This document shows, one piece after another, positions 855 through 62,438 of a stretch of DNA of 64,000 nucleotides. Origin of the DNA: Limisphaerales bacterium (GTDB lineage: Bacteria; Verrucomicrobiota; Verrucomicrobiia; Limisphaerales; SIBE01); assembly GCA_044225505.1 (NCBI GenBank), contig JBGAIN010000025.1, positions 1 to 64,000 on the forward strand. Reading direction: 5' to 3'. Both the position numbers and the translations under genes were made by a program. Numbering within the stretch: the first letter of the stretch is position 1; each line of letters opens with the position of its first letter. The notes under the pieces were generated by a model. The model was not told the origin of the DNA. It saw only the letters and a program-made list of their open reading frames with translations, and ran no database searches.

Positions 855-2096
855 TCACTGCCTCATTAAGCGGAAAAACGCGGCGACCTCACTCAGGGAT
901 ACCTTCAAACTGCCTTCTTCCTCAGGAGAAAAGGGAACATCATGCCAGCCGGATGAGAGACTGTGCGACGTCTGCAGCCGCAATCCTGGCTCAGGTGTCC
1001 AAGATAGGACAATCGATCCGGCATCGAGTTTGATCGAGATGAGGAGATTGGAAGCCTTCTCCAGTTCATTGGCCAGTGGTTGGTTTACTGTTTGTGCCCA
1101 GGTTTGCCACGCCTGACTAAGAGCAAGCATCGGCGAAACGGTATCGATGGCCCAAATTAGGGCGGTATTGAGCATGTGATAGGAGGGGTCGAGGTAGGGG
1201 GGCGACCCCTGAACGATGTGTCGAAGGTCGTAGGCTGAGAAGCCCGCAACAGAATAGTAGGGCAGAACCAATGACAAGGTTTCGAGGAGTTTCTGCAGAG
1301 GACAGTCGACACTCGAGTCGTGTTCTCTCAGGTCATACAGTGCTAAGACTGCAAAACAGGCGTCATTAAGGGTGTAGGTATCAAGATGCCCTGGGTATTC
1401 TTGCACGATCGGAAGTCGTGATAGACTGGGATCAATTCCGGCCAACGAATCTAAGCAACCGCCAGAAGCGGTGTCTCTCAACATAAAGCTGGCCGCCCGT
1501 TTCGCTGCTTCCAGATACTTATCGTCCCCAAAGAGTTTGTAGGCGCGCAGCCAGGCGCTAATCGCCTGGGCCTGGGCTATTCCGCTCGTCCACCCGTTCG
1601 AGAGAGGCGGCGACCAACTTTTGAGGTCAAACTCCGCTCGCAGTGAACCGTCCGCCTGCTGAAAGTCCAGCAGTTTATCCGCATTGATTCGAAAGGCGCG
1701 CGCGAGCGGCCGATCATGGAGGTAGTCGCTGTAAAGCCAAAGTGCGTATTGTGCAATCGTCGTGGGCTGATAGACGAACGTGAGTCCTTCGTCGTAAGTT
1801 TGCACAATGACGCCACGGGCATCATTCGTTGTGTTGCCCCAACGCATTGGACTCCAAGCCGCTTCGGCCCAGTTCAGATAATCCCCGCCTGGGACGTACG
1901 GTCCGCTCAAGGTGAAGAGTCGCCAGTCCCAGCCTTCCACCGTATACTGAGCAAGTGCCTGGAGAACGGGCGCATTGTTAGCCGCAACGCTGCCCGTCGG
2001 CCAATGATCCAGTGTACTGTCGCCTAGATCGCATTCTGCTCCCGCAGAAACCGAATAAAGTACCCACATCGATAGGGACAGCGCTTTGATTAGCAT
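855..2096 (-). CDS. Secreted D-glucuronyl C5-epimerase (GLCE) family protein with a C-terminal F[YF]R domain
   Basis: Signal peptide. GLCE-like motifs WTSGIAQAQAISAWLRAY, DKYLEAA, QEYP..TLN, YDLRH and YH. The tail ends LQTSHSLSSGW...AFFRL. Confidence 0.8.
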   Translation of the reverse strand: MLIKALSLSMWVLYSVSAGAECDLGDSTLDHWPTGSVAANNAPVLQALAQYTVEGWDWRLFTLSGPYVPGGDYLNWAEAAWSPMRWGNTTNDARGVIVQTYDEGLTFVYQPTTIAQYALWLYSDYLHDRPLARAFRINADKLLDFQQADGSLRAEFDLKSWSPPLSNGWTSGIAQAQAISAWLRAYKLFGDDKYLEAAKRAASFMLRDTASGGCLDSLAGIDPSLSRLPIVQEYPGHLDTYTLNDACFAVLALYDLREHDSSVDCPLQKLLETLSLVLPYYSVAGFSAYDLRHIVQGSPPYLDPSYHMLNTALIWAIDTVSPMLALSQAWQTWAQTVNQPLANELEKASNLLISIKLDAGSIVLSWTPEPGLRLQTSHSLSSGWHDVPFSPEEEGSLKVSLSEVAAFFRLMRQ

Positions 2097-2312
2097 TCTT
2101 TGAATAAAAACGTCTTGCTGGGGATCGGTGGTCTGTCTCTCCCTAGGCAGTCTTCCCTAACTTGGACCAAACGACACCTGCACGAACTGAAAGTAGCCCG
2201 GGTCTTCTAGCCAATTCCCAGCGCCGTTCAGGCACGTTAAGTGCCTTTCCCGGAATGCGCTGATAGCGACTCTTGCTTGCCTAACACGTTTTGATTTGCT
2301 CTACTCATGTAA

Positions 2313-3830: not shown

Positions 3831-3871
3831 CTTGGCCCAAGTCGCGTGGCTTGCTGAGCGGGATCGAGGTC

Positions 3872-6538: not shown

Positions 6539-6547
6539 GGAGAAAGG

Positions 6548-8529: not shown

Positions 8530-8565
8530 CTCGGGTGGAAAGTAGCTAAGCCGCGGATAGAGAAA

Positions 8566-11165: not shown

Positions 11166-11195
11166 GCGCGACGAAGCTGTGGGCTAATTCGTTAG

Positions 11196-15438: not shown

Positions 15439-15480
15439 AAATCCGACAAGCACTAGTAGGTTTCAGGGCGATCGCTGGGA

Positions 15481-24599: not shown

Positions 24600-24611
24600 A
24601 AGTCAAATTTC

Positions 24612-36735: not shown

Positions 36736-37118
36736 GAATCGGCCCTTCGTCAAAAGAGCAAGCGAAGCGTGATTTTTACGAGCTGAACGTTCATTAGCAA
36801 GGCACGAGAACGGGTTTCCACTGGAACACCTCTGGCCAGTGACGAGAATTCCCTAACCATGGAAGCCCCAGCGACGGTCAACCACAGGCCTTACTCCCAG
36901 TTCCGAAAACGTTCCCACCGCTGGAGACCCGAGCATTGACGGAAACTCCTATTTTGGGCGGGCGAACTGCCGCAATACGATCGGCTCCCCGTCTTGCCCT
37001 GAATTCACCCTGCGGATTCCTGATTTGCGATAGCGGCATTGTAATTCACCGCGGAACAGGATACAGGAAAGCGTGCTTGAGGTTCGTCAACGCAGCGGAC
37101 AGAAGGAGACATTTTAGA

Positions 37119-39128: not shown

Positions 39129-39773
39129 ATGGGAATACCCGGTCGAACTTGGGCCGTTCATCGGTGGGATGCTGCTTGGCGGTGGAGCGTTCTTCTGTGT
39201 GGAATACGTCTGCTAACCGCTAACCTCGATGCCGAGACCGTCGACACTGGGTTCCTCTCTCCACAAGCGGTCGCGCGTAAAGTCATCCTTCCTCTCTATG
39301 CGAAAGGAGAAGCTGAGCCAGCCATCGTCGTGCGGGCGTCACGTGTCTCCCGTGAGTTTCAACGACACGGTTTCTTCCGGTTGGGCCTCGCGCCACAAAC
39401 GGTCATGATCGATCTTAGCATTGAGGTCCGCGACGCGCCGCGAGCCCGGGAACTCCTGCGCGACGTGGTGTCGCGAGTTTCTTCTGAAAGCGGCAAAGGT
39501 CCTGTGTTGGTGCGCGGGATTGCGATATGCCTGCCGGGACAATCCGGGCCCGTAGTGAAAGCTTCCGGGCTCGATTTTGCTTCGGGCGTCTGGCGGCTAC
39601 GCGCGGGGACGCTCACCTTGTCGGGAAAGGATTCCACCGAATTTTCCGACGCCATTCTCAACGTCACAGGACCAAATGTCGGAAGACTCACATTGGCGGC
39701 TGACGTTGGCCCGAGGGTCATCGATCTTTTTGAAATCACTCCGAGTCATCTCAGTCTTAAATCACTGCCATGA
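39129..39773 (+). CDS. Hypothetical exported beta-rich protein
   Basis: Signal-like N-terminus. The stop codon overlaps the next start (ATGA). Confidence 0.65.
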   Translation: MGIPGRTWAVHRWDAAWRWSVLLCGIRLLTANLDAETVDTGFLSPQAVARKVILPLYAKGEAEPAIVVRASRVSREFQRHGFFRLGLAPQTVMIDLSIEVRDAPRARELLRDVVSRVSSESGKGPVLVRGIAICLPGQSGPVVKASGLDFASGVWRLRAGTLTLSGKDSTEFSDAILNVTGPNVGRLTLAADVGPRVIDLFEITPSHLSLKSLP

Positions 39774-41335
39774 AACTGCCTTGGCCTGCGTTGGTGCTAT
39801 CGATTTTGGTGGGGTTGCTAACGAACCGAGCTCAAACCGCCGATAGTTTGGTTTTACAGGGGCGCGCGCTCTTGTCCGCGAAGGATTTGCCTAATGCCAA
39901 CGCGCGCTTTTTGACGTCGGTGGAACTGTCGCCTACCCACCAGACGGCCAATGTTCTCTATGCCGCGACTCGGGTCCTGGCTTGGCCTTACAGTCGTCCC
40001 GCCCAAAACATGATGGATCGCTTGGGCATGACGCAAACAAACCGCGATCTCTATCTGTGGACGGCGAAGATTCCGCATGACACCAACGGGGTGCCGATTC
40101 CGCCCAACGACCTCAGTTCCGGCGAGGTGCTCGACTTGGTACGCACCAACCTTTTAACGGAGCTCTCGGGCGCGCTGGGCAATCTCGCGAAAGTCACCGA
40201 CACCAACTTCCTCCTGAACTTGACCAGCAATGAAACCAAGATGGGCGATGTGACCCTGGATTTTGGCGACGTGCAAATTCTCCGCGCACTGTTGCACGCG
40301 GGCGAGTTCTTCATTTACTCCATCCATTCCTACGACCTCAATGCTCAGTTCAACGCGTTATACAGCATGCACCAGCGCGGGGAGTTGACCATCGACCAAC
40401 TGCTGGCCAACTACCCACGGGCGCTGACCTATGCCACGACCAATGATCTCTCCTTGGCATCCAACGCCTTCGGCAACGCCGTCCAGACCTACCTGGCCGG
40501 ATCCGAGTTCATTCGAAGCCGCCCCACGAATATCGTCCGACTGTTCAACTACGATGCCGACATGGCCAAAGACGAAGCGCGCTTTCGCCAGACCCTGGTA
40601 GAACTGCGGGCTTCCTTCACGGCGCCGGTGAGATCGACCCAGTTGACGAACGATGCCGGTTCCATGGTCCTCAACCTTGGACGCGCCTATGACGGCACCA
40701 TGGTGCTCCGCTCGTTGCTGCCTACCTTCCACGCCGGTGGCATCCTCCTCGGTTCACTTCCAGACCCTACCTTCAACGGAGTGATCTCCGGGTTGAGTGA
40801 ATCGGACTTTTACGCGGCGCTCGGCGCGAATGCCAAGCTGTTCCCCTCGTTCCGCACTTTGCAGCAATTGCCGGACGGAGAGCTGCAATTCGATGTTCAC
40901 GCTGCTAATGGACGCCTTTACGCTATCGAAACGTCGAGCAATCTGGTGACTTGGACGGAGATCGATACGGTGGTCGGGGAACAGGGGCTCGTGAGGTTCG
41001 TGGACTCGGCGCTGGGAGGGCCGCTCCGCGCTTTCTATCGAGTGCGCGACCTGTCTGATGCCATTTCGTTTGAAGGCGAAGTTCTGGACGCGCGGACAGG
41101 CAAACCGCTGGCGGGTGTGGAGGTCTCTTCTACCATAGACAACCAGACCGCGACGACTGATGAATCGGGACGCTTTCTTTTGATTACGAGGAGAACGGCC
41201 AATTTCATCGGCTTTTTTAGCTTGACCTGTCGAGCGACCGGCTACACCTCCCAGCCCTTCTCCCAGTTTTTCAGCGGCGGCCGTCACGCCACGGACATCG
41301 TCTTGTGGATGATCAATCCTGTCGCCGCGAACTGA
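39770..41335 (+). CDS. Secreted protein with a helical N-domain, an internal F[YF]R domain and a C-terminal carboxypeptidase-regulatory-like domain
   Basis: Signal peptide, YAIETSSNLVTW...AFYRV, GEVLDARTGKPLAGVEV...TTDESGRF. Confidence 0.8.
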   Translation: MKLPWPALVLSILVGLLTNRAQTADSLVLQGRALLSAKDLPNANARFLTSVELSPTHQTANVLYAATRVLAWPYSRPAQNMMDRLGMTQTNRDLYLWTAKIPHDTNGVPIPPNDLSSGEVLDLVRTNLLTELSGALGNLAKVTDTNFLLNLTSNETKMGDVTLDFGDVQILRALLHAGEFFIYSIHSYDLNAQFNALYSMHQRGELTIDQLLANYPRALTYATTNDLSLASNAFGNAVQTYLAGSEFIRSRPTNIVRLFNYDADMAKDEARFRQTLVELRASFTAPVRSTQLTNDAGSMVLNLGRAYDGTMVLRSLLPTFHAGGILLGSLPDPTFNGVISGLSESDFYAALGANAKLFPSFRTLQQLPDGELQFDVHAANGRLYAIETSSNLVTWTEIDTVVGEQGLVRFVDSALGGPLRAFYRVRDLSDAISFEGEVLDARTGKPLAGVEVSSTIDNQTATTDESGRFLLITRRTANFIGFFSLTCRATGYTSQPFSQFFSGGRHATDIVLWMINPVAAN

Positions 41336-41458: not shown

Positions 41459-44400
41459 TCACTGCGGCAGCCAGAGCACCCGGTAAAATCGTTTCCCAGG
41501 CTCTCCTGACACTGTTTTATCGTCAACGACGTAGGGCATGACGGAGCTCGATCGCCGATCTGCGGTCGTCCAGGCGCGCAAGTCCGGCGACACCTGAAGC
41601 TCGTAGGTCTGCCCGGCGTGTCCGCGGATCAAAAGTCGCGATCCCGCCGCTGCAGAAGGGGGTTGTTGCACCTCCACGGACGGGACCAGCGCGTCCAGGA
41701 GGAAACGGGCCTGGCGCTGGACCTCTGGAGTGACTCGGCCTGCCGAACTTAAGGCAAAGGTGGTCAGCGACTTCGCGGCGCCGAGGTAGTCCTTTAAGCC
41801 GACGCTCGCGGACGCCAGTACGAATTGATTATCGACCGCTTCCGGGTCTGCCGCTCCTGGAGTCAAAAGCGTCGCTTGTTGGGCGAGATCTCGGGCCGAT
41901 TCCCAGCGTTTCTGGTCCCAGGCTTGGAAGGCTAATCGCTCCAGATGCCGAGCACGCGTGACGTCATCGGCCGCTGCGGCGACTCGGAACGCGATCTCCG
42001 TTCCGGTCGTAGCGGAACCGCTGGCGGGAGCGGCCAGGGTGGCGAGGCCATGACCATCCCATTGCACGCGCAACGTATAGTTACCCGGTTCCAGTCCTGA
42101 AACGGCGGGGTCCGTCAAAAACTCCCGTGTCCAGCTTCCCAGCCGCTGTTCAATCCCTGTCGATGGGTCTGAAACGGTCCGGGAATAGGCTGCCCAACGG
42201 TCCGGGGCCAGCACGCTGGTTCGAGCCCCATTCGTTCCCAAGCGGAAGAGTTCCAGGCGCAGTCCGTTCCACCAGCCGGACGCGATGGCTGGGAGCGTCG
42301 GAGGTCCGTTGTGTTGCTCCTGGTGCAGGGCTTGAGTCCAAGCCTCCGTGGCTGACGGAGCGTTCAACCGGACCACTATCCGCAGCGGATCCCCCGCCAG
42401 AACCGGTTCCCAAACCACGTCCGTCGTCACTTGGAAGCTTGGGGCGGTCGCCGTCGCAAACGACTGTAGGGAGCGACTCGCCAACGGGACAGTCGCGTTC
42501 AGTGCCGCGGTTTCGATTTCCGGGCTGACGTCACGCGGGTGCAACGTCAGCAGGGAAGCTTTGCCCTGCCGGTCGGTGACATGAATCTGCTTATAGCACC
42601 CTTTGCCTTCCTTGGTGTCGGCGGCGCTTTGACAGAACTCCTGAGGCCGAATGGCATCGTTGTTCCAGCGCGCTTTGAGTTCCATCCGGTCGGTAACGTC
42701 CTTGGGACAATCGTCGTCCAGGTATCGCATATAGCATGTCCATGGCCCGCCGGTATTCGGAGAAAGCAAATCGTCGATGCCGACGCCATGGCCCATCTCA
42801 TGACTGACCCCAGCCATCAGGTAGAAATGATTCTGCGCTCCCCACTCGCCTGGGTGCGACAGAATATATTCATCGGCCAACCGTCGCCACTCGGTGTTGA
42901 GCCAAGCTTTTTCATCCGGCGGAGCCGAGGAGTAATTGGCAAACAACGGCAAAGCTGCCGTGTGATAGCGCACATAATAGCGGCAGATGTTCGCCAGACT
43001 GGGGGGATACAGTTCAATGACGAAGGTTGACCGTGGCCCATCAGGCCAGTTGCCGCCCGTCACGTCGTGGTAGGCGAAGCCGTAAAAGGCGCTGATGTCA
43101 TATTTCAGCGAACTGCCATATTTGGCGACCCACATCTCCTGAAAATCCGCCGGCACGGCGGGCGATGGACTCTGGACGACACGCACATGCACAGCGTGCT
43201 GGTCTGTGGCGTGGCCAAACCCGGACGTGTTGAAGTTCACGATCCGCTTGTCGCTGCCGGCGGGGCCAGGGCCGGTCCAAGTGTCCGGTTGCACAAATCG
43301 GACGCGCAGCTTGCTGGCATTTTCGAAACTCATCAGCGATTCGAGATTGAGCCGCACCAGGTTGTCCGGATCATAAACGAACAGATGCTTCTTCCGCGCT
43401 TTTAACCGTTCGTGAGTTTCTCCGAACTGAAATCCTCGATACTTCTCATACAAAGAAATTCCATCCCCGTTCGCTTCATGATCGTTTGGTTCGTCCGCTT
43501 CATCCCACGCTGGATCCTGGGCTTGCCCAAACGTCCCTTCCTCTTTTTCCCACGAGTCGGCAATGTGATTATTGTTTTCGTCCTTGGGCAAGGTGATCGT
43601 CTTTTGCTCCGGATTCCCTTCAACAAACGCCTCGATCTCTTCGCCAGTGTCCAGGATGGCCTTCACCCGGACTTTGCCATAAGCCCCATAATCGTAGCAG
43701 AGCACGACGGCGATAGCATCCGTGGTGAACCGCTCCGTTTCCAGGGACTGGGCCTGGTTCGGGGGCGTGAACCCTCCTGGCGTCGCAAACCCAAGATCGA
43801 AATAGTCGAGCGCTTGATCTTTGGTTGGATGGTTCATGCAGATGCCAGGTTCTTTTGACGTTTCCACTAGCTCGAAACGGAACTTGGCTTTCCGCACGGG
43901 CGGCGGTGCAGTCGTTCCGGCCATGCGCAATTCTGCCCGCACCTCGACAGGGAGAGTTCCGGGAAACACATGATCCGGACCCGCCTTCGGAATCCAAGCG
44001 TCGTAACTCCGCGGCGGAAGGATGACCGCTTCGACTTTGCCGTCGCCACCGCGGGAGAGAGTGAATCTTGCAGTCACCTTCCCCTGAGCGAGCGGATCCG
44101 AATAGCTGGCTTCTCCTTGTCCGGAAGCGTTGAACTCGGCGGCATTAGGTTGGAACTGGACCATTCCCGAACCCTCTTGCATCGAGTAGTTATCTTCGGC
44201 CATCTTGATGGCGGTTCGGGCCAGGCGTTCACTGCCTTGGCCAGCCTCGGGCGTCGACAGAATCAGATCGTTCAGGTAACTCCACCCGATCGTGGCCTTG
44301 CCTTGAGACGGCATATAGTTGACCGAAACCGTTCCTTTGGGCACGGATCGTTCGCTGTAAGTCCATGATTCAATATCCAGGATGTGTCCACCTCCAGAAG

Positions 44401-44695
44401 CCGTGAGGGTATATTGTTCTTCGGCAGCCTCTTTGTAGTGACCGGTGGCTGGATCAGGTCGGAACACAGCCCGCCCAGTCAAGTGCACTTCACATTTATC
44501 CGAGATCGCGGTTGAGACATTCCCTTCGCCGGTGCCCGAGACGTCGACAGTGACAACGAGTTCGTCCGCGCCAACGGCTCGGGTTGGGAGCGAGCCGTTC
44601 AGAAGCGCCAGGATGGCGGGCAGGAGCTTGACGATAAGGCGCAGTTTCGACGAGGCAAGTCTCAATTGTGGTAGCAGTCGACTTACTGAATACAC
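41459..44695 (-). CDS. Large secreted protein with a HExxH zinc-peptidase-like motif and a C-terminal F[YF]R domain
   Basis: Signal peptide (start may lie further downstream), SHEMGHGVG...CYMRY, a TPR-like helical segment, YELQVSPDLRAW...RFYRV. Confidence 0.8.
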   Translation of the reverse strand: MYSVSRLLPQLRLASSKLRLIVKLLPAILALLNGSLPTRAVGADELVVTVDVSGTGEGNVSTAISDKCEVHLTGRAVFRPDPATGHYKEAAEEQYTLTASGGGHILDIESWTYSERSVPKGTVSVNYMPSQGKATIGWSYLNDLILSTPEAGQGSERLARTAIKMAEDNYSMQEGSGMVQFQPNAAEFNASGQGEASYSDPLAQGKVTARFTLSRGGDGKVEAVILPPRSYDAWIPKAGPDHVFPGTLPVEVRAELRMAGTTAPPPVRKAKFRFELVETSKEPGICMNHPTKDQALDYFDLGFATPGGFTPPNQAQSLETERFTTDAIAVVLCYDYGAYGKVRVKAILDTGEEIEAFVEGNPEQKTITLPKDENNNHIADSWEKEEGTFGQAQDPAWDEADEPNDHEANGDGISLYEKYRGFQFGETHERLKARKKHLFVYDPDNLVRLNLESLMSFENASKLRVRFVQPDTWTGPGPAGSDKRIVNFNTSGFGHATDQHAVHVRVVQSPSPAVPADFQEMWVAKYGSSLKYDISAFYGFAYHDVTGGNWPDGPRSTFVIELYPPSLANICRYYVRYHTAALPLFANYSSAPPDEKAWLNTEWRRLADEYILSHPGEWGAQNHFYLMAGVSHEMGHGVGIDDLLSPNTGGPWTCYMRYLDDDCPKDVTDRMELKARWNNDAIRPQEFCQSAADTKEGKGCYKQIHVTDRQGKASLLTLHPRDVSPEIETAALNATVPLASRSLQSFATATAPSFQVTTDVVWEPVLAGDPLRIVVRLNAPSATEAWTQALHQEQHNGPPTLPAIASGWWNGLRLELFRLGTNGARTSVLAPDRWAAYSRTVSDPSTGIEQRLGSWTREFLTDPAVSGLEPGNYTLRVQWDGHGLATLAAPASGSATTGTEIAFRVAAAADDVTRARHLERLAFQAWDQKRWESARDLAQQATLLTPGAADPEAVDNQFVLASASVGLKDYLGAAKSLTTFALSSAGRVTPEVQRQARFLLDALVPSVEVQQPPSAAAGSRLLIRGHAGQTYELQVSPDLRAWTTADRRSSSVMPYVVDDKTVSGEPGKRFYRVLWLPQ

Positions 44696-44965: not shown

Positions 44966-47900
44966 ATGAAGCGCACTGTCCTTCTTGGGCTCTGGCACGT
45001 TGTCGGTTTCGCGCTTCAAACTTGGACGAGGGCCGCCGGGCAGTCGGACATAGCCCCCATACCCGGTCAACTGGACCCGGCCTTCGCTCCGGAAATTCTT
45101 CGCGATGGCATAGTCGCACATATTCAGAAAGCAGGAGCCGGGAAATTCATCGTGGTCGGAGATTTTACCCGAGTTAATGGAGACAAACGTAACCAGATTG
45201 CCCGCATTCACAGTGATGGGAGCACAGACAGCGACTTTAACGCTGGTGAAGGAGCTGATCAACAGATCGATAGTGTCATCGTCCAGCCAGATGGGAAGGT
45301 TCTAATCGCAGGCTCTTTCAGTAGAGTGGGCGGTTTACCTCGCCTTGGGTTAGCCCGGTTGGAACCTGATGGACGTGTGGATCGATCTTTCGATCCCGGA
45401 GTAGGTTCCCGGCCGGTGTTAGCGCTCCAGCCCGATGGAAAGATCGTCTGCGCAGATTGGGGCGGTGTCACCCGTCTCTTCCCAAATGGCAGCCCGGATT
45501 GGGAGTTTGGCGTTTCAACGCTTCTGCTGGTCAACAGAGGGACCACTGGGCTCTACCGCAAACCGAAGCCCCCATTAGGTCCCGCGCCGATCGATTTAGC
45601 CCTTGGCGTTGACGGAAACATTCTGGTGAACGAGAGCCAGGAAAATCCCTGGGGCAGACGAATCGTTCGCTTAACATCCCAGGGTGACATAGAGCCGAGT
45701 TTTGCGTCCGATACTCACGGACCGGTAGAATACGGATTCCACCCTTTATCGACGCCCGATGGGAGCCGGATTTTGTCGCTGCCCGATGGAAGCAGTGTGA
45801 TGGTTGGTTATTTCGACGATTCCAACGAGCCCAACCTTCCTCGCCTGCGCAAGCTGACACCCACTGGGAGGGTGGACTCAAGTTTTCAAGCGATTGCCAA
45901 CGACTACATTAGTTCCGTGAGAGTGACTCACGATGGGAAGCTGTTGATTGGGGGGAGCTTTACCCAAGTCAACGGGCTGCCTCGGAATCGCATCGCTCGT
46001 CTGCTTAGCAGTGGATCGCTCGATCCGACCTTTCAGCTTCGCTCCGGCCCAAACCGCGATGTCCATAGCGTCTGTCTTTTGGGAAGCGGTCAAGTCCTAC
46101 TTGGAGGCGAGTTTGATGAAGTCGACGGGGTGTATAGTCCCGGCCTCGCTCTTGTCTCAGAAACCGGGGAAGTGGATACGAGGTTCCATGCCGAGACGTC
46201 TCGAGCCGCGGCCGTGCATGCCGTCGTGGCACTTCCGGATGGCAAGCTACTGGTTGGCGGACGTTTCGATCAAGTGAACAACGAGCGTCGGCACAACCTC
46301 GTTCGCCTCGATGCAGAAGGGAGAACCGACCCCGCCTTTGAATTCTCGCTCACAAACGGCGTTGCCAAGCTGGCTATCGAGGCCGATGGTAAGATCGTTG
46401 CTGCTCTGTTCAATTCGCTGGGTTACGACTTCCCAGGCACCTTGTTCCGATTGAACGCGGATGGATCGGTGCTGGCCCGGCTGTCGCTGCCTCACACAGG
46501 CTATTACATCTCTGCCCTGCAGGAAGATCTTGATGGTGGCGTCTGGGCCAGCGGCTTCGTTCCCGGGGCCTCGGAAGGAGCTTTCCTGGACCGGCTATGG
46601 ACTGGCACGCCTCGCCGCGTGCCTTGGTTCTCGTCTTGGGATGGAGAATTTTGGGCTCTCGTGTTTCAAACGGACGGCAAGCTGATCGTCTCGAGAGATC
46701 CTACTCCCGCCGGCAGTTCCAGCGGCCCAGGGCTTGTCCGCGTGGACCCTGCCGGCCAGTTGGACTTAACATTTCAAACGAAGCCAGAGCTAGCCGGTGA
46801 AGTCATCGCGCTTGCGGTTGGCGCTGATGGAAAGATCATGGTTGGTCAGCGAGCCGAGCCGTTAAGCACTGTCACCATTCCTGCGATCGTCAGGCTAAAC
46901 CTCGATGGCAGCCAAGATGAGGCTTTTACCATCGGAGACGGTCCAAACGGAGCGGTCCATGATCTAGCCATCACTCACGACCAAAAGATTTTGGTTGCTG
47001 GCTCATTTACGACTTTCAACACCAGTCCAAGGCAAGGCTTAGCGCGGCTTTTCGGTGGCCATGGCGCAGTCAAGGTGGCTGGTGATGTCCCACAACTGCA
47101 TCCAAAGGATGCGCATGCGAGGTCCCAGGGAAACTCCTCGAGTGTCCGGAGCCGGACGGTCGGTGAATCAGCACTCGCCAGCTTGACGAGAGGAGTGTCC
47201 CCATCACTGGCTGAGGCGCTCGATGTCTCCAATCTTGTTTGGGAAACAGGTGGGGATGCTCTTTGGGTGGCCGATACGGTTGTAGCTCACGACGATTTCA
47301 GTTCGGCGCAGAGCGGTCGTATCGGAGCAAGGCAGAGCAGTTGGCTGGAAACCGAAGTGCGGGGTCCAGGTCAACTTAGCTTCTGGTGGCGTTTTGACTC
47401 CAAGGAGGAATACCCGCATGCGTCGTTCTCATTCGGTATCGGCAGTACAACCCTTCCAGCCTCCAAAGAATGGAAACAAGCAACGTTCTCGATCCCGCTG
47501 GGTGTTCATCGACTGCGATGGGACCTTAATGATTGGAATTCGTCCGGCGACCAGCTTTGGGTTGATGAAGTGACTTACGTGCCGGTACCGGCGCTAACAG
47601 TGACCTCCACAAACGACAGCGGACCGGGCTCCCTGCGGCAAGCAATCCTTGATGCAAATACGCAAAGGGGTTCTCAGCGAATCTCGTTTGCCATTCCAGG
47701 ACCAGGGCCCCACACCATTCGTCCCAATTCTGCGCTGCCGTCGGTGACAGATGCTCTCTTCATTGACGGGTATAGCCAACCGGGAACTCAGCCGAACATC
47801 GATCCAGTGGCCCAGAAAGCGGTTCTGTCGATTGAAATCGACGGGAGCAGCGCGGGATCCGAGGTCCATGGGCTAGTCGTCGCAGCTTCAGAGTGCATCG

Positions 47901-49960
47901 TGAGCGGACTGGTCATCAATCGTTTCTCTGGCGCCGGGATCGTCCTCGACGCCAGTCAATGTCGCGTCGAGGGAAACTTCATTGGCACTGATCCAACCGG
48001 GCGAACTGGCTTAGGCAACCAGGGCTCCGGGATCTGGGTGCGGTCCGGCGGCAGGATCGGCGGAACTCAACCAGCGGAGCGAAACCTAATCTCCGGGAAC
48101 GGCGGCAACGGAATTTTTTTGGGGCGAGCCAATGGCGCGATTCTTGGGAATCTCATTGGCACGGATGCGAGCCAGACGAGTCCGATTGGAAACCGTTGTG
48201 CCGGAATTGGCGTCGCAGCGGCCATTGGAATGTGGATCGAGAATAATGTTATCGCAGGAAATGGAGACGCTGGAATCTGGGTCTTGGGTCCGTTGTCCAC
48301 TAATAATTGGATTGAACTGAACTTGGTGGGAACCGACTCGAGCCGCACCAGGAAGTGGGGCAATGGTCCAAACGCGCCAGGATTGCGACTTGAAGCTTCC
48401 GACGTTATGGTCGGGCTCTCGAACGTTTTCGCGTTCCACGCCGCTGCTGGCGTGCGGGTGCTCTCCGGCATCCGCAATGAGATGCGACGTAATCTTTTCA
48501 CTGGGAATCAGAAGCTTGGTATCGACCTGGGATTGGACGGTCCTGACGTCAATGATCCGGGCGATTTGGATACAGGAGCGAACGAACTTCAGAACTATCC
48601 CATCTTAACTTCCGCATCCGTTGAGCATTCGACCGTTATCGAAGGGCAAATTATCGGCCAGCCAAGTCGTCTGCTTACGATCGATCTTTACGCTGCGTCT
48701 CAAGTGAACGCGGCGGGCTACGGACAAGGAGAACGGCTGCTAGCTTCGGTGAAGACTACAAGCGGTGCGGACGGGACCGCTTCATTCAGGCTAGCGGCGG
48801 AACCGATTTCCGTGGGAGAGTTCGTGGTGGCCACCGCGACAGACGACGGCTCCGCCTCAGCGGCTTTTGGCCTGGCAGAGTTTCGAGTTCAGGGGCTGCC
48901 TGGGCGAGGTCCCGGCGGGAATACGTCTGAGTTTTCACAGGGCATTCAAGTCACACCCGGGGTCCCGGGTATGGACGGCCCCCCTGAATTAGCCATATTT
49001 TCTGATCAGACCTGGGCGCGAGGGGAGTGCATCACTCTCAATTTCTTAGTGAGCGACGCCGAAACCCCTCCCGACGCTTTAACCGTGTCCGCGAGATCCA
49101 GTGATGAACAACAATTCCCCGCGGCGAAATTGTCACTCTCCGGCCCCTCGGTGGATGAATCTCGCACGGGAGCGCGCTGGACGCTATCGGCATGTCCCAT
49201 GGTGGCCAAGACTGGCCAGGTAACGATCAATCTTCAGGTGGCCGACTCGGCCGGTCAGACAGCGACGAGCAGTGTCACCGTGACCTATGTGGATGCCATC
49301 TCGCTAACACTAGCTCCCGACGCAGTCTCAAGCTCCGTGGGGGCGTCCACCTTGGTGCCTGTCCGAGCATTCGGTTTCAAAGGACTTTCTGCGCTGTCGT
49401 TGTCGATCCTCTGGGATCCCACTGTCGCTCGATTCCGCTCCCTTGAGCCAGGTGCCCTGGGATCTGATCTAGCAGTGGATCTTGCACAGGCCGACCGCGG
49501 CATCGCTCAAGCCAATTGGCTTCATCATTCCTCCCGAGAACTGAGTTTGCCGGATGGGACAAGCCTTTTCGGACTTCGCTTTGATGTCATCGGTCCAGTG
49601 GGCGCTTCGTCTTCCGTGCTCGTTGATGGAGTCTGGGCACACTCGCCGTTACTGGGGCTCAGTTCACCGTCAGTAACCAGTCGCGCAGGTGCCATTGTGG
49701 TTGTTTCGGAACCGGCGCTGATCACTCCCGTGAGTCTAAACGCGGTCCACGATCTGAATGCCGGTCTGCAAATCGCATTCAGCTCCTCGAGAGGCAACTT
49801 ATATGTTCTGGAAGCAACTCCAGTTGTGCCCGCTGAGCAATGGACCGAAGTAGCGCGCATCACTGGCGACGGGACGGACAAGAGTTACTCCATTTCTCCC
49901 GGAACCGCCCAATCCTTCTATCGTCTGCGTGTTCAGGCGGAATCGACTGCGGCGCCATGA
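44966..49960 (+). CDS. Secreted delta-60-repeat / beta-helix / cohesin-like multidomain surface protein
   Basis: Repeats QPDGK..I.G.F..V.G..R..IARL..DG..D..F. Also VTSTNDSGPGSLRQAI, GNFIGTD, cohesin-like ILWDPTV...PDGTSLFGLRF, and a terminal SFYRL. Confidence 0.88.
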   Translation: MKRTVLLGLWHVVGFALQTWTRAAGQSDIAPIPGQLDPAFAPEILRDGIVAHIQKAGAGKFIVVGDFTRVNGDKRNQIARIHSDGSTDSDFNAGEGADQQIDSVIVQPDGKVLIAGSFSRVGGLPRLGLARLEPDGRVDRSFDPGVGSRPVLALQPDGKIVCADWGGVTRLFPNGSPDWEFGVSTLLLVNRGTTGLYRKPKPPLGPAPIDLALGVDGNILVNESQENPWGRRIVRLTSQGDIEPSFASDTHGPVEYGFHPLSTPDGSRILSLPDGSSVMVGYFDDSNEPNLPRLRKLTPTGRVDSSFQAIANDYISSVRVTHDGKLLIGGSFTQVNGLPRNRIARLLSSGSLDPTFQLRSGPNRDVHSVCLLGSGQVLLGGEFDEVDGVYSPGLALVSETGEVDTRFHAETSRAAAVHAVVALPDGKLLVGGRFDQVNNERRHNLVRLDAEGRTDPAFEFSLTNGVAKLAIEADGKIVAALFNSLGYDFPGTLFRLNADGSVLARLSLPHTGYYISALQEDLDGGVWASGFVPGASEGAFLDRLWTGTPRRVPWFSSWDGEFWALVFQTDGKLIVSRDPTPAGSSSGPGLVRVDPAGQLDLTFQTKPELAGEVIALAVGADGKIMVGQRAEPLSTVTIPAIVRLNLDGSQDEAFTIGDGPNGAVHDLAITHDQKILVAGSFTTFNTSPRQGLARLFGGHGAVKVAGDVPQLHPKDAHARSQGNSSSVRSRTVGESALASLTRGVSPSLAEALDVSNLVWETGGDALWVADTVVAHDDFSSAQSGRIGARQSSWLETEVRGPGQLSFWWRFDSKEEYPHASFSFGIGSTTLPASKEWKQATFSIPLGVHRLRWDLNDWNSSGDQLWVDEVTYVPVPALTVTSTNDSGPGSLRQAILDANTQRGSQRISFAIPGPGPHTIRPNSALPSVTDALFIDGYSQPGTQPNIDPVAQKAVLSIEIDGSSAGSEVHGLVVAASECIVSGLVINRFSGAGIVLDASQCRVEGNFIGTDPTGRTGLGNQGSGIWVRSGGRIGGTQPAERNLISGNGGNGIFLGRANGAILGNLIGTDASQTSPIGNRCAGIGVAAAIGMWIENNVIAGNGDAGIWVLGPLSTNNWIELNLVGTDSSRTRKWGNGPNAPGLRLEASDVMVGLSNVFAFHAAAGVRVLSGIRNEMRRNLFTGNQKLGIDLGLDGPDVNDPGDLDTGANELQNYPILTSASVEHSTVIEGQIIGQPSRLLTIDLYAASQVNAAGYGQGERLLASVKTTSGADGTASFRLAAEPISVGEFVVATATDDGSASAAFGLAEFRVQGLPGRGPGGNTSEFSQGIQVTPGVPGMDGPPELAIFSDQTWARGECITLNFLVSDAETPPDALTVSARSSDEQQFPAAKLSLSGPSVDESRTGARWTLSACPMVAKTGQVTINLQVADSAGQTATSSVTVTYVDAISLTLAPDAVSSSVGASTLVPVRAFGFKGLSALSLSILWDPTVARFRSLEPGALGSDLAVDLAQADRGIAQANWLHHSSRELSLPDGTSLFGLRFDVIGPVGASSSVLVDGVWAHSPLLGLSSPSVTSRAGAIVVVSEPALITPVSLNAVHDLNAGLQIAFSSSRGNLYVLEATPVVPAEQWTEVARITGDGTDKSYSISPGTAQSFYRLRVQAESTAAP

Positions 49961-53623: not shown

Positions 53624-54033
53624 AAAGACCGCGCACTATGGCCGACCTGGAACACCTTGTGCAAGTGGAAGCGATCAAGTCCTAAACTTGAGGCAGGGAG
53701 CCAACTCGTTTCCGACAAGGGATGGAGAGACGCGGCGCTTGCTCTGACCGTAAAACCCGGAAATTGGAGACAATTTGTTCCCATGCATGACTCGTTGAAT
53801 GGCAGTAAGTTGCGGCAAATCAGCGCTTTATTTGCGTCGTTTGTATGACGCTCGTGCTTACGTGCCCAGACGGCCAATGGATGGGTCGGGCGACGTGGGG
53901 GGTCGCGATTTGGGAGGCGCGCCCGTGTTGGTTTCCAGATAGGTGCCGCTTAACTGATTCAAATCGGAACGGAAAGCGCCGGCCTGAACAGGAAAAGCTT
54001 TCCGGGAAATTCCGTCGGCATCAACATGGTGCG

Positions 54034-54792
54034 GTGCGCGAGCCAGGTGATAACACGATCGGGAAACGTCCTCAACCGGCGGCCGGTGTGTTTGCAACCA
54101 CGCACTGGAGCGTAGTATTGACCGCTGGCGGTGGAGAATCCCCTCAGTCTCATGCGGCATTGGAGAAGCTGTGCCATGCCTACTGGTATCCGCTCTATGC
54201 CTACGTCAGGCGGAAAGGATACGATGCGCATGCCGCACAAGACTTAACTCAGGAGTTCTTCGCACGATTGCTGACTCGGAATTATTTGGGTGTCGCGGAC
54301 CGTAACCGGGGCAAGTTCCGCTCCTTTCTCCTCGGTTCGTTGGAGCATTTTTTGGCTCGCGAATGGACTAAGGCTCACGCCCAAAAGCGCGGCGGCGGTC
54401 ACGCGCCCTTTACCCTCGATGCCTTGGATGCCGAGGATCGCTACCACCTGGAACCGGTCGATGAGTTGACACCGGACAAAATCTTCGACCGACGCTGGGC
54501 GACCATCCTGTTGGAATGCGCGATGCGCCGCTTGCGCGATGAATGCGCCGCGAATAACAAGCAAGAGTTGTTTAAGCGGGTGGAGGGCTTGCTGTCCGGG
54601 GAAAAGGGCGAGGCTTCCTATTCAGAAATCGCCGTAACTCTGGGAATGACTGAGGGGGCGCTCAAACTAGCGGTGCATCGTCTGCGCCAACGTTACGGCG
54701 CTTTGGTGCGCGACGAAATCGCACAAACGGTCGCCACTACGGAGGAGGCGGACGAGGAACTGAGCCATTTACTCGCCGTGCTGCGCGGCTGA
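54034..54792 (+). CDS. ECF-type RNA polymerase sigma factor
   Basis: FATTHWSVV, YWYPLYAYVRR, AQDLTQEFF, KFRSFLL, YSEIAVTLGMTEGALKLAVHRLR. Start uncertain. Confidence 0.9.
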   Translation: MREPGDNTIGKRPQPAAGVFATTHWSVVLTAGGGESPQSHAALEKLCHAYWYPLYAYVRRKGYDAHAAQDLTQEFFARLLTRNYLGVADRNRGKFRSFLLGSLEHFLAREWTKAHAQKRGGGHAPFTLDALDAEDRYHLEPVDELTPDKIFDRRWATILLECAMRRLRDECAANNKQELFKRVEGLLSGEKGEASYSEIAVTLGMTEGALKLAVHRLRQRYGALVRDEIAQTVATTEEADEELSHLLAVLRG

Positions 54793-55011
54793 AACAATGT
54801 GTGACCTTGACTCCGAAAAGGAGCAATCTGGGGGTGAACAGTCCAACACGCCAGCGAGCAATAAAAACCATCAAACGAACGAGTCAGTGATTCTGCCTGC
54901 CTCAGACAATGCGCAGATCTTCCGGGGGCGTCGGCCGGGAACTTCCGTGACGAATCTTTCACCGGTTGCATGCTTGGCTGAGGTGCGCGCCGGGCGCTCG
55001 GTTGGGAACCC

Positions 55012-57567: not shown

Positions 57568-57755
57568 TTGGGCCGCATAGAGGCCGAAGTGTGTTTCGAT
57601 AAGCAACCTGGGCGAGAAAGCCCAACGGCATGATGTTGGGCCGGCCCGCCAGTTACCCCCCCCCCAGGGAGAATGATGCAGAATTTTCTGTAACCTTTCC
57701 TTCGCGATTAAGCAGTAACGAAGTGAATAACCAAGTTCACCTGAGGAACTGCATC

Positions 57756-60116
57756 GTGAAAAACATATACTCTGCAATCACTGGAATCGTGCTCGGAGCC
57801 ATGACGATTTCCCGCGGCGTCGCTCAATCCAATGACGAGCCTTACACCTTCACCACGCTCGCTGGGAGCGGCGGGTCCAACCGTGTGGAAATGCCCGGGA
57901 AAGCAGCGCGCTTCCGCGATGCGACCACCGTAGCCGTGGACGGAGCGGGCAATCTCTATATCGCCGAACAAGGCAACCATATCATCAGCAAAGTAACGCC
58001 CGATGGCGTCGTGACGACTTTCGCCGGACGGCCAGGGACGGCCGGCACCGCCGACGGGACGGGAAGCAATGCCCGTTTCAGCGGCCCTTCCGCTGCGGTC
58101 GTCGATAGCGCGGGTAATGTCTACGTGGCGGACACCTTCAACTCTACCATACGCAGGATATCACCCGCAGGAGAAGTGACGACCCTCGCGGGATCGGCTG
58201 GAAACTTTGGCAGTGCGGATGGGACTGGCAGCGCGGCGCGGTTCAATGCCCCTTTTGGGATGGGAGTTGATAATTCAGGGAACGTTTATGTGGGTGATTC
58301 CGACAATCATACCATCCGGAAGTTGACGCAGGTCGGCACGAATTGGGTGGTGACGACTTTGGCTGGGCGAGCGGGGGTTTCAGGCGTCATCGATGGGGTT
58401 GGGAGCGCAGCACGGTTTAATTTCCCAGGCCCGATTGTCGCGGACAAGGAGGGCAACCTCTACGTTGGCGATGGATATGGCCACACCATCCGCAAACTGG
58501 CGCCGGCTGGAACCAACTGGGTTGTCTCGACCATTGCTGGACGAGCAGGAGTGCGCGGGACTGCGGACGGAACGGGGAGAGATGCGCGCTTTAGTGAGCC
58601 TGGCGGTCTGGCATTCGACAGCGCCGGGAACCTATTTGTGGCTGAGTTCCGCAATCATACCGTCCGTAAACTGGCCCCGGAGGGAACGAACTGGGTTGTG
58701 ACGACGGTAGCGGGATTAGGAGGCCAGGCCGGCAGCGCGGACGGGATGAACAGTGAAGCGAGGTTCAATGTTGCTTCTGGCTTAGCGATCGACAGCGCGG
58801 ACCATGTTTACGTGATGGACTTAGGTAACGGCTTGATTCGCAAAATCGCGTTGACCGGCACGAACTGGGTCGTGACGACGTTCGCCGGGGTTGGGGCGAC
58901 TTTCGGGAGCGGGAACGGCGCGGGAGCGGATAGCCGATTCTATGGCCCGGCAAGCGTGGCGGTGAGCAGCTCAGGGAGTCTTTACGTGGCGGACAGTATA
59001 AATCACACGATCCGAAGTGTGACCACGGGCTCCGGAACGGTCATGACCCTGGCCGGACAAGCGGGCTATGCCGGGAGCACCAATGGCACCAACAACGTGG
59101 CCCGCTTTAACGCTCCTTATGGCATCGCGGTGGACAACGCGGACAATGTCTATGTGGTGGAGACGCTCAATCACACCATCCGCAAGCTTCACCCGAACGG
59201 CTCGGACTGGGTCGTGACCACCCTTGCGGGCGCGCCCGACCCCGAGGGGCCGGGCGGCAATGGTGGCAGCGCCGACGGAATAGGCAGCGCCGCGCGATTT
59301 TCCTTTCCAAGAGGCTTAGCCATCGACGCCGCGGGTAATCTCTACGTGGCTGATTCCGGGAACAGCACGATCCGGAAAGTGACTGCTGCAGGGGCGGTGA
59401 CAACGCGCGCTGGGAGCCCTGGAAAGTACGGAAGCACCGATGGCGTGGGCGGCGCCGCGCGGTTCAATAGCCCCAACGGTGTCGCCGTGGATAGCTCCAC
59501 CAACCTCTACGTCGCCGATACGTTTAACCACACTATCCGCAAAATCACACCTGCCCGAGTGGTGTCGACATTGGCTGGGTTGGCCGGCAGTCCCGGCAGC
59601 GCGGACGGAATCGGGAGCGGCGCGCGTTTCGAGCTCCCTTCCAGTATCGCGGTTGATCCGGCTGGCAATCTCTATGTGGCGGACACTTACAACAACTCCA
59701 TCCGAAAACTGACCCCTGTCGGGACAAACTGGGTCGTGACGACGCTGGGCGGCATGTCTGGCTTTTACGGCACCGCCGATGGAGCCGGGAGCACCGCCCG
59801 ATTCGGCAACCCGAGCGGGATCGCTGTCGATGCAAGTGGCACCCTCTACGTGGCGGATTTTTACTTTAACACCATCCGCAAGGGATACCCGCCGACGAGG
59901 CTCGCCAACCCCGGTTTTGAGGGCGGCCAATTCCGGATCGATCTCGTGGTGCCGCCGGTCCCGCCGGGCCAGTTGGCGACGGTGATCATGGAATCTTCAA
60001 CTGATCTTCTGCGCTGGGTTCCCATTGGGACTAACGCCCCGGGCAACGTGACCTTTATCGATTCATCGGCTGGCGTTCCCTTCAATCGCTTTTACCGCGC
60101 CCGGGTGCCGCAATGA
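57756..60116 (+). CDS. Secreted NHL-repeat beta-propeller protein with a C-terminal F[YF]R domain
   Basis: GTG start with a GAGGA ribosome-binding site, signal peptide, about 12 repeats of ARF..P.G.AVD.AGNLYVAD..N.TIRK, tail MESSTDLLRW...RFYRA. Confidence 0.92.
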   Translation: MKNIYSAITGIVLGAMTISRGVAQSNDEPYTFTTLAGSGGSNRVEMPGKAARFRDATTVAVDGAGNLYIAEQGNHIISKVTPDGVVTTFAGRPGTAGTADGTGSNARFSGPSAAVVDSAGNVYVADTFNSTIRRISPAGEVTTLAGSAGNFGSADGTGSAARFNAPFGMGVDNSGNVYVGDSDNHTIRKLTQVGTNWVVTTLAGRAGVSGVIDGVGSAARFNFPGPIVADKEGNLYVGDGYGHTIRKLAPAGTNWVVSTIAGRAGVRGTADGTGRDARFSEPGGLAFDSAGNLFVAEFRNHTVRKLAPEGTNWVVTTVAGLGGQAGSADGMNSEARFNVASGLAIDSADHVYVMDLGNGLIRKIALTGTNWVVTTFAGVGATFGSGNGAGADSRFYGPASVAVSSSGSLYVADSINHTIRSVTTGSGTVMTLAGQAGYAGSTNGTNNVARFNAPYGIAVDNADNVYVVETLNHTIRKLHPNGSDWVVTTLAGAPDPEGPGGNGGSADGIGSAARFSFPRGLAIDAAGNLYVADSGNSTIRKVTAAGAVTTRAGSPGKYGSTDGVGGAARFNSPNGVAVDSSTNLYVADTFNHTIRKITPARVVSTLAGLAGSPGSADGIGSGARFELPSSIAVDPAGNLYVADTYNNSIRKLTPVGTNWVVTTLGGMSGFYGTADGAGSTARFGNPSGIAVDASGTLYVADFYFNTIRKGYPPTRLANPGFEGGQFRIDLVVPPVPPGQLATVIMESSTDLLRWVPIGTNAPGNVTFIDSSAGVPFNRFYRARVPQ

Positions 60117-60177
60117 GCGGCGGTCGTCCTCAGGTCTGTCCGTCAATATCTCCAGAATCCCTCAGGAAAAAAAGACG

Positions 60178-62438
60178 ATGAAGAATTACATCGATCACGG
60201 CGTCGGAAGCTTGGTTCTGCTGGCGCTGACGGCCATTCGCTGTTTTGCCCAATCCACTTACGAGCCTTACACCTTCACCACTCTCGCCGGCGGGGGCGGC
60301 TACAGCACAAACGTCGCTGGAATTGCCGCGCGGATCAGTAATCCTGCGGGTGTGGCGGCGGACGCGGCCGGCAATGTGTATGTGGCGGACACCTTCAATC
60401 AGGCGATTCGAAAAGTGACACCGGCCGGAGTCGTCACGACCTTGGCCGGGCTACCGGGGACTTCTGGCAGCGCCGACGGGACAGGCAGCGACGCACGATT
60501 TTATTATCCGGACAAGCTCGCGGTGGACAACGACGGAAACGTCTATGTGTCGGACAACGAGAACCACACGATCCGGAAAATAACCCGGGACGGAGTTGTT
60601 ACGACGCTGGCGGGGCGGGCGGGCGTTTCCGGCAGCGCAGATGGGACGAACAGCGCCGCAAGGTTTAATTACCCCGAAGGAGTGGCCGTGGACAGCGCCA
60701 ATAATATCTACGTCGCGGATGCAAGCAATTCTACGATCCGAAAACTAACGCCAGTGGGAACGAACTGGGTGGTGACGACGCTGGCCGGACTGGCCGGGAG
60801 TTTTGGCAGCGCGAACGGGACAAATAGGACGGCGCGGTTCAACTTTGCCCAAGGCTTGGCAATCGACAGCGCTGGGACCCTTTACGTTGCGGACACGGAC
60901 AACCACACTGTCCGCAAAGTGACGCCGGTCGGAACCAATTGGGTGGTGACCACGCTGGCAGGGAATTCCTCCCAAAAGGATCAACTTGGTAGGCCTGTCG
61001 GCGGCTATGCCGACGGGATGAATAGCTCCGCTCGATTTAGCGAACCAAAAGGGGTTGCGGTGGACAGCGTGGGCAATATTTATGTGGCGGACGAAGGCAA
61101 TCACGCGCTGCGGCAAATGGCCCTCGTAGGAACGAACTGGATGGTGACGACAATCGCCGGACTGGGGGGTAATCCTGGCAGCACGGATGGGACGAACAGC
61201 GCCGCGCGGTTTGATTTTCCCTATGGCGTGGCGGTGGACAACACAGGCAACGTCTACGTGGCTGACTTATATAATGATGCAATCCGGAAGTTGACGCCCG
61301 ATGGCACGAACTGGGTGGTCGCCACGCTGGCCGGACTCGGAGGTGTTTCTGGCAGTACGGACGGCCCGGGTAATTCTGCGTTGTTTCGAGGTCCCGCCGG
61401 AGTTGCGGTGGATAGCGCTGGCGGTGTCTATGTGGCGGATCAAGTCAATCACGTGATCCGCAAACTAACGGCGGTGGGTGAAGTGACGACCGTGGCAGGA
61501 TTGTCGGGCTATGCCGGCAGCGTGAACGGGACGAACAGCGACGCGCGGTTCAATAGTCCTTATGGCGTAGCAGTGGACAACACGGGGAAATTCTATGTCG
61601 TGGAGCGAGGCAATGGCACGATTCGGAAAGCAACACCGGCAGGAACGAACTGGGTGGTAACAACATTGGCCTCGGGTGTTGGTGAACCCAAAGGACTGGC
61701 TGTGGACGGCTCGGGCAATGTCTATGTGACAGACTCAGGCAACCACACGATCGACAAAGTGACACCGGCTGGAGTTGTGACGATCTTGGCCGGATCGGCG
61801 GGCAGCTATGGCAGCGCGAACGGNNNNNNNNNNNNNNNNNNNNNNNNNNNNNNNNNNNNNNNNNNNNCCGTGCGAGAGTAGTCACGACGATCGCCGGAAT
61901 GGCCGGTAGTTCTGGTAGCGCGGACGGAATCGGGAACTCCGCGCGGTTTGATTATCCTTCTGGTATCGCGGTGGACAACTCCGGCAACCTCTATGTTTCT
62001 GATACCTACAACAACACCATCCGCAAACTGAAGCTGGTCGGCACGAACTGGGTGGTGACGACCCTCGGCGGAATGCCCGGCTTTTACGGCACAGCGGACG
62101 GAACCGAGAGCACGGCGCGATTCAGCAATCCCAGCGGCTTGGCCGTGGACGGTGCGGGCAACCTTTACGTGGCGGACTATTACTTCAACACCATCCGCAA
62201 GGGATACCCGCCGACGAGGCTCGTCAATGTTGGCCTCTTCGAGGGGGACTTTCGGTTCGGTTTCACGGGGCCACCTGGGCAAACCGTGATCGTGCAGGCA
62301 TCGTCTGACTTGGTGAGTTGGTCGCCGATATTGACCAATTCCATTGGACCCGACCTCGTTTTCCGCCGACCGCTAGCGGACGTCATCTCGAACGGCTTTT
62401 TCCGGGTCCGCGTCCCTTCGAGCCTATTTGAAAACTAG
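60178..62438 (+). CDS. Second NHL-repeat protein (paralogue) spanning the assembly gap, with a C-terminal F[YF]R domain
   Basis: ORFs 60178-61881 and 61899-62438 continue the same repeat series across the N-run. Tail VQASSDLVSW...GFFRV. Confidence 0.85.
61824..61867. other. Assembly gap (44 N)
   Basis: Run of N inside the repetitive NHL gene. Confidence 0.99.

Follow-up and report, generated by a model that had tools for sequence, protein, structure and literature searches.

An uncatalogued terminal domain of predicted fibronectin III-like fold on signal-peptide proteins of Limisphaerales, linked by gene order to type IV filament loci

Introduction

In type II secretion systems (T2SS), loops on the fibronectin type III (Fn3) domains of PelI and Pel3 are secretion determinants that contact GspC and GspD (PMC7949064), and the immunoglobulin (Ig) fold of VesB is a graftable signal (PMC12369372). 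The C-terminal domain (CTD) of the type IX secretion system (T9SS; TIGR04183/PF18962) is a beta-sandwich of ~70 aa that ends hundreds of unrelated signal-peptide proteins, PEP-CTERM and GlyGly-CTERM are C-terminal suffixes on unrelated exported proteins, and cargo of the type XI secretion system (T11SS, Slam) ends in an eight-stranded barrel (PMC12282271). Swapping of tails among sorting signals has been described (PMC3237569). Within the Verrucomicrobiota, no protein is more abundant in the outer membrane of Akkermansia muciniphila than Amuc_1098, which has been read as a pilus secretin (PMC4960237). The MUL2 locus (Amuc_1098-1102) is reported to be conserved among Verrucomicrobiales, whereas Methylacidiphilales gave no detection (PMC13174399). 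Here, we examine 64,000 nucleotides of DNA from a Limisphaerales bacterium (assembly GCA_044225505.1, contig JBGAIN010000025.1, positions 1 to 64,000; this whole stretch is called the window), in which six proteins with differing cargo parts carry the same small domain, below called the tail. An earlier note, made from the letters of the window, had proposed that this domain may address proteins to an outer-membrane secretion or surface-anchoring machine.

To our knowledge, no common signal is known for T2SS-like secretion. We found that the tail belongs to an uncatalogued family of terminal domains on nearly 300 open reading frames (ORFs) of one genome, that it has a predicted Fn3-class fold, and that genes encoding it follow type IV filament loci across the host order. 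We tentatively read it as a portable handle for secretin-dependent export, comparable to a T2SS determinant turned into a dedicated tag, and hold this reading to be a little short of evenly balanced.

Results

The six window segments form one domain family

The window corresponds to G000:C62:1-64000 of the source genome (G000; 9.04 Mb, 342 contigs, 95% complete). All six tail segments lie in frame within long ORFs, where the earlier note had placed them, as follows.

855..2096, minus strand: carrier 1, 413 aa, resembling D-glucuronyl C5-epimerase (PF06662, E 4.9e-33)
858..1058, minus strand: tail copy 1, C-terminal, the weakest copy (30.3 bits)
39770..41335, plus strand: carrier 2, 521 aa, with signal peptide; N-terminal part unassigned, CarboxypepD_reg-like domain after the tail
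40835..41053, plus strand: tail copy 2, internal, the copy used for folding (39.1 bits)
41459..44695, minus strand: carrier 3, 1078 aa, with one HExxH motif and no Pfam or NCBIfam match
41468..41686, minus strand: tail copy 3, C-terminal (35.7 bits)
44966..49960, plus strand: carrier 4, 1664 aa, with a delta-60/DUF5122 propeller, a beta-helix and Ig parts
49721..49936, plus strand: tail copy 4, C-terminal (38.8 bits)
57630..60116, plus strand: carrier 5, NHL-repeat protein (NHL-1), 828 aa
59886..60110, plus strand: tail copy 5, C-terminal (27.6 bits)
60178..62438, plus strand: carrier 6, NHL-repeat gene (NHL-2), called as two ORFs (60178-61881 and 61899-62438)
62205..62417, plus strand: tail copy 6, C-terminal (39.1 bits)

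Pairwise E values among five of the six segments ranged from 1e-14 to 0.2. The C5-epimerase copy was the weakest (E 0.06-0.67) and scored 30.3 bits (E 2.7e-6) on a genome-wide profile that it had itself partly seeded. That profile, iterated from the six window seeds over 101,882 stop-to-stop ORFs of G000 (E<0.01), found 298 tail domains in 291 ORFs and 0 among reversed decoys, and an independent profile built from 60 phylum sequences added just 4. The six segments are therefore confirmed as one domain family, and the earlier claim of a shared module holds. The domain is larger than the ~60 aa first ascribed to it, extending over ~70-75 aa and six strands. Its most conserved columns are W (97%), F/Y (97%), R (95%), E/Q (91%) and L (71%); W and R are near-invariant although mean identity is only 18-26%.

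The tail domain is uncatalogued, in agreement with the proposal that the family is undescribed. Neither Pfam nor NCBIfam had a model over it in the 39 members scanned, among which PF00041 (Fn3) also gave no match. A PDB sequence search returned CBM32 glucanase domains at best (E 0.001) and Fn3 weakly, neighbors in the ESM Atlas were Verrucomicrobiota clusters without names, and we found no account of the domain in open-access full text. Carriers make up ~5% of the genes of G000 and ~9% of its coded residues.

Within the window, the cargo types were as the earlier note had named them, with PF06662, the unassigned protein with its CarboxypepD_reg-like domain, HExxH and delta-60/DUF5122 once each and NHL twice, and the tail occurred in 0 of the 20 other called genes. 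Signal peptides, claimed for all six proteins, were called by a crude rule in four carriers and in the upstream piece of NHL-2; the rule missed the C5-epimerase. NHL-2 is interrupted by a run of 44 N bases (61824-61867), so that its signal peptide and its tail fall on separate called ORFs. The copy in carrier 2 is internal, as the earlier note had it, and lies 91-95 aa from the protein end. Just beyond the window, G000:C62:64370-68596 encodes a seventh carrier, which has its tail at the C-terminus, and carrier 3 has a paralogue of 88.5% identity on G000:C19:595-3837.

Carriers are signal-peptide proteins with the tail at a chain end

Across G000, the tail is C-terminal (no more than 20 aa before the stop) in 230 of the 291 carriers, directly behind the signal peptide in 31, internal in 13 (carrier 2 among them) and short or alone in 14; 3 cases are open. 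Uniform placement would put only ~12 of 274 at the end of the chain, so the position of the tail is not random. The tail is present in a single copy in 246 of ~255 carriers; tandem arrays are also real, with up to 10 true copies. With 31 N-terminal carriers and these arrays, a strictly C-terminal, T9SS-like signal is not supported. TIGR04183 matched nothing in G000, and TIGR04183/PF18962 matched 0 of 39 tail members.

The crude rule called signal peptides in 149/213 carriers of the C-terminal class and 27/31 of the N-terminal class, compared with 16/21 PEP-CTERM proteins, 9/96 P-loop proteins and 1916/4791 other genes. Transmembrane segments were rare in carriers (3/259 versus 650/4173 other proteins), as were Tat-like motifs (1/259 versus 142/4173). 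VPEP was matched once among carriers, inside a tail. The tail is a folded, soluble domain lacking the transmembrane helix and basic cluster of PEP-CTERM and GlyGly-CTERM, and it is neither a T9SS CTD nor a PEP-CTERM, the latter as the earlier note had said.

The cargo is diverse: with the domain masked, 287 carriers cluster into 213 families. Large proteins are often tailed (23 of the 38 signal-peptide proteins of >1500 aa in G000). The PelI/Pel3 and VesB signals are loops particular to one substrate each, whereas the tail is one conserved domain on ~290 unrelated cargoes. A c-type heme motif (CxxCH) occurs in 8/259 carriers, and multiheme cytochrome-like proteins on G000:C158, C198 and C201 bear the tail; these are possible extracellular electron-transfer proteins. 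A DxDxDG..N..E hairpin motif stands ahead of the tail in 27/259 carriers versus 4/4173 other proteins, and the same hairpin is found on Amuc_1099-like proteins outside the host order (L078, L080, L081, L088, L089 and L093-L096).

The predicted fold is a fibronectin III module without its last strand

An AlphaFold2 prediction from an alignment of 39 sequences gave a six-stranded model for copy 2 with a predicted local distance difference test score (pLDDT) of 87.6. Its structural matches were many Fn3 chains at a generic level (Z 7-8); several tied for the best score, one of them the PelI Fn3 domain (Z 8.1; root mean square deviation, 2.2 over 70 aa). The tail and Fn3 share the strand motifs L.W, Y.[LV][EQ], W and [FY][FY]R. 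The model aligned to residues 3-79 of 96 in 3mpc and 1-77 of 93 in 4lpu, and 197 of 211 C-terminal copies end no more than 8 residues past the conserved Arg (median, 5 residues), which leaves no room for a strand G. Because of this alignment extent and the ending near the Arg, strand G is missing and RFYR forms strand F, at an open edge. By the predicted model, then, the tail is a truncated Fn3 module with strands A-F and without G, whereas Fn3 domains have seven strands including G. Like the determinants of PelI/Pel3 and VesB, it is a small Fn3-class sandwich at a protein end; unlike the PelI and VesB signals, it lacks strand G. T9SS CTD structures were not listed among the top 50 fold matches, an absence that does not exclude a likeness.

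The tail profile cross-matches ordinary Fn3 repeats (P0002). Such a cross-match would be expected of a neutral, mobile, Fn3-derived cap, a stability or spacer module that has spread by domain shuffling and has no routing role, and the internal and tandem copies and the orthologues without a tail would fit it too. A neutral module sits poorly, however, with the extreme terminal bias, with a single copy per protein, with W and R kept at such low mean identity, and with the mutual exclusion between the tail and known sorting tails described below, and we give it little credence.

Tail genes follow type IV filament operons across the host order

G000 encodes machinery resembling that of T2SS, with 6 secretin matches, 6 strong GspE/PilB ATPases, minor pilins and alignment-complex genes. 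Two PilM-PilN-PilO-secretin operons (I and II) and a single minor-pilin cassette each have tail genes directly behind them. The tail is thus linked to PilMNO-type operons and not to the two GspK/L/M-like clusters of G000 (identified by eye), which lack tail genes directly behind them. The best matches of operon I are NF042912, NF038287 and NF045709 (Amuc_1098-1101-like), all below the equivalog cut-offs. In the host order, such a locus is followed by a conserved, order-specific series of genes for large secreted proteins, three or four in number and for the most part tailed.

We obtained the DNA downstream of operon I from 31 of 40 genomes of the host order, each from a different family. In the first 20 loci (chosen for the highest secretin scores), a contig end truncated one, the run of genes A-B-C was kept in 19, and A and/or C carried the tail in 16 of these 19. 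Among 12 further regions, the tail was seen in 8/8 that could be evaluated, and 3 were uninformative, giving tail genes in 24 of 27 evaluable loci in total. In G207, the only host-order genome without a tail match, the operon I region is cut at an apparent tail start. One genome has just 2 tails, and one of these sits on gene A of operon I.

For operon II, examined in 20 of 31 positive genomes, the first downstream gene on the same strand was tagged in 10 cases and the second in 1, and 9 had no direct link. For the minor-pilin cassette, we examined 19 of 38 positive genomes and found the adjacent following gene tagged in 16/19; in the other 3, the sequence was broken off by a contig end or a stretch of N. 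For comparison, the background rate in G000 is 143/3386 (4.2%). Other ORFs in the examined loci were tagged in 8/230 cases, 4 of which lie inside the operon run, and machine-core ORFs in 0/207 (a class that includes an interposed exonuclease gene). Prepilin-motif genes had a tail gene within two genes in 27/92 cases, against a background of 15.6%. As the loci are related by descent, these counts represent about three ancestral arrangements kept across many families and not independent trials. From gene order, the type IV filament systems (secretin, PilMNO and minor pilin), encoded elsewhere in the genome than the window, are candidates for the machine that handles the tail.

In nearly all genomes of the host order, the gene behind the minor-pilin cassette encodes a giant S8 protease that has a hydrophobic segment at its N-terminus and carries tails in tandem (L195:100-8270, minus strand; G000:C27; split over two frames in G000); it is a candidate processing protease. 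Gene B (L001:7828-9411, minus strand; G000:C78) encodes a conserved, order-specific secreted protein with an invariant N-terminal Phe and no Pfam match, which we take by eye to be matrixin-like, though without a zinc motif. We considered gene B as a phylum-wide partner and discarded it, since it had 1 real match in 201 genomes. A T2SS-like cluster of G000 contains a secretin whose open frame (G000:C260:88460-101443, minus strand) spans 4328 aa and consists largely of N-domain repeats. Multicopy pilin cassettes in other orders (L196, L198, L199, L201 and L203) lie near PEP-CTERM rather than tail proteins.

Range across the phylum

Across one set of 201 phylum genomes, one profile found the tail in 93 and another in 94, no more than 28 candidates being scored in each genome. 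Of the 94 positive genomes, as many as 8 are doubtful, owing to single weak matches in families f17 and f24; in the 2 such genomes that we opened, the matches were CBM32-type (F5/8-type C) domains. In the host order, 39 of 40 other genomes were positive, mostly with 23 to >130 copies. Elsewhere, the tail was patchy within groups, with 5/15 genomes of family f5 and 6/16 of genus g6 positive, and two families without a secretin also lacked the tail (f8, 0/4; f11, 0/2). The 85,601 representatives matched by the profile are an upper bound that includes ordinary Fn3 repeats. In G078, of the Akkermansia-like genus g6, the sole tail ends a LamG-GH18-BACON protein (L113:8052-11885, minus strand), the orthologue of which in G063 is also tagged.

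The terminal slot is shared with other sorting modules

Of the 120 best homologues of NHL-1, 54 end in the tail (always terminal), 7 end in a different tail that starts with NLSTR, and 0 have both. Judged by eye, the other 59 include ~12 with glycine-rich membrane tails, to which NCBIfam gave no name, 3 with dockerins and ~6 with divergent copies of the tail; 1 ends in a T9SS CTD (P0234; 42.3 bits on TIGR04183), and the rest have no evident tail. In G060, an NLSTR-start terminal domain also ends the large protein encoded directly behind the secretin (L090:5323-9414). A further exchange is seen at operon I: where the tail is absent (three loci), an unrelated domain of ~300 aa forms the end of gene C. 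Its predicted fold is three eight-stranded barrels (pLDDT 94.6), the first of which matches the C-terminal barrels of NHBA, fHbp, hemophilin and TbpB (Z 10.3), a fold of the T11SS-cargo type. This barrel tail stands in for the tail on operon I genes A and C, and it occurs in 17/41 genomes of the host order (none in G000), with 27 of 30 copies terminal (L122, L126, L132 and L216-L245). The two domains are unrelated; the tail is a sandwich, and only its alternative is of the barrel type. The barrel tail is a second uncatalogued terminal domain.

Because the tail swaps with other sorting modules, the terminal slot appears to be a sorting slot, one that export signals and anchors both use. The tail might therefore serve docking at the surface: export would depend on other features, and the tail would then bind a glycan, a surface-layer protein or a pilus noncovalently, as dockerins and SLH domains do, the genes behind the filament operons encoding pilus-bound accessory proteins. 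The dockerins and glycine-rich anchors in the NHL slot are in keeping with this, as is the occurrence of the tail at either end and in tandem; cohesin-like domains also occur in some tail carriers. The GlyGly-CTERM of VesB likewise gives surface retention and not secretion (PMC12369372), and the tail is patchy where the secretin is nearly universal. Yet no candidate receptor co-distributes with the tail, gene B being order-specific, and the tail swaps with export signals (the T9SS CTD and the T11SS-type barrel) as well as with anchors. Carriers with a single copy would also gain little avidity. Overall, we regard docking as the main rival account of the tail, though a rather doubtful one.

Searches for other translocons

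The exchange with the triple-barrel tail, and a many-to-one architecture resembling that of T9SS, could instead indicate another outer-membrane translocon, a Slam-like or T9SS-like beta-barrel, in which case the filament linkage would reflect co-regulation of surface structures. SprA (TIGR04189) was not found in G000 (95% complete), nor Slam/DUF560 (PF04575) in any of 41 genomes of the host order, but the control profiles were silent in both searches. An autotransporter barrel was absent from G000 in a search whose control responded, yet most of the largest signal-peptide proteins of this genome bear the tail (23 of 38, as given above), which favors the handle reading. No barrel family was enriched beside the tail genes of G000, where only kinases, extracytoplasmic function (ECF) sigma factors, prepilin-like and FG-GAP families were, and no barrel gene was seen within 1.5 kb of the 30 barrel-tail loci. 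The N-terminal copies would also fit a threading translocon poorly. On this evidence, a separate translocon seems quite unlikely. TIGR02600 and autotransporter profiles were considered as partners and rejected, as neither tracks the tail. The earlier suggestion of a lineage-typical address domain stands insofar as the tail ends unrelated exported cargo that is almost never of membrane or Tat type; as to the partner, gene order points to type IV filament systems and not to a T9SS-like barrel.

Other genes in the window

An ECF sigma factor and a Ser/Thr kinase-tetratricopeptide repeat protein are encoded directly upstream of the NHL carriers (53845-57567). Over the whole genome, members of each of these families are found next to tail genes more often than expected (ECF sigma, 14/35; kinase, 24/69). 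A 214-aa signal-peptide protein (39129-39773) overlaps the start of carrier 2; it has no Pfam or NCBIfam match and no paralogue in G000. The window also encodes a DGQHR/DndB-like protein (36936-38243) and a protein of 1106 aa that matches UDPGP and fucokinase-like families weakly (26703-30023).

Discussion

Export through a secretin, with the tail as its handle, could proceed as follows; the steps extend beyond the observed cargo bias, position, fold class, order-wide gene linkage and tail swapping, and are what we infer. Cargo would cross the inner membrane by Sec, as the crudely called signal peptides suggest, and would probably fold in the periplasm, given the c-type heme motifs of some carriers. 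The folded protein would then present the tail at a free chain end, C- or N-terminal. There, the conserved patch of W, E, L and [FY][FY]R, in which the RFYR strand leaves one edge of the sheet open, might be bound directly by a component of the type IV filament system, the putative reader being a PilP/GspC-like Amuc_1099 homologue, the N-domains of a secretin or a minor-pilin tip. The folded protein would finally leave through an Amuc_1098-type or a second, PilQ-type secretin, as in T2SS.

Several observations weigh against this proposal. The fold match to PelI is tied with matches to many unrelated Fn3 domains, tandem arrays reach 10 true copies, and the slot holds membrane-anchor-type tails or dockerins in some homologues, which points to retention. 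The gene linkage is largely limited to one order and rests on about three ancestral arrangements; in other orders and classes, a tail gene stands next to the secretin in 1/20 loci and flanks the pilin cassette in 4/20, one of them by eye only. A secretin is present in 193 of 201 phylum genomes and the tail in at most 94, so that the channel occurs in ~100 genomes that lack the tail, and two fragmented tail-positive genomes had no secretin match. Even at operon I, gene B is never tagged, and gene A lacks any tail in 4/19 loci. Finally, two papers describe the Akkermansia locus as a pilus or attachment system and not as a protein exporter (PMC4960237 and PMC13174399).

A broader version of secretin-dependent export, which we think possible but on the improbable side, would have the phylum use it in bulk: the Amuc_1098-type secretin, PilMNO and minor pilins would form a T2SS-like exporter with a graftable sorting domain, a strand of the machine would complete the open RFYR edge, and interchangeable tags (the tail, the triple barrel and the NLSTR domain) would serve by lineage. 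Such a system would be the counterpart of T9SS in Bacteroidota.

The linkage to filament loci names concrete genes for knockout, which makes the question directly testable, and G078, with its single tagged GH18 protein, allows a clean test. If the tail is indeed a handle for secretin-dependent export, no dedicated tag that serves many cargoes of one secretin machine would have been known before it, and it could serve as a graftable display tag. The Amuc_1098-1101 locus would then have a second role, and sequence would suffice to predict which proteins Verrucomicrobiota of soil, sea and gut secrete or display at their surface.

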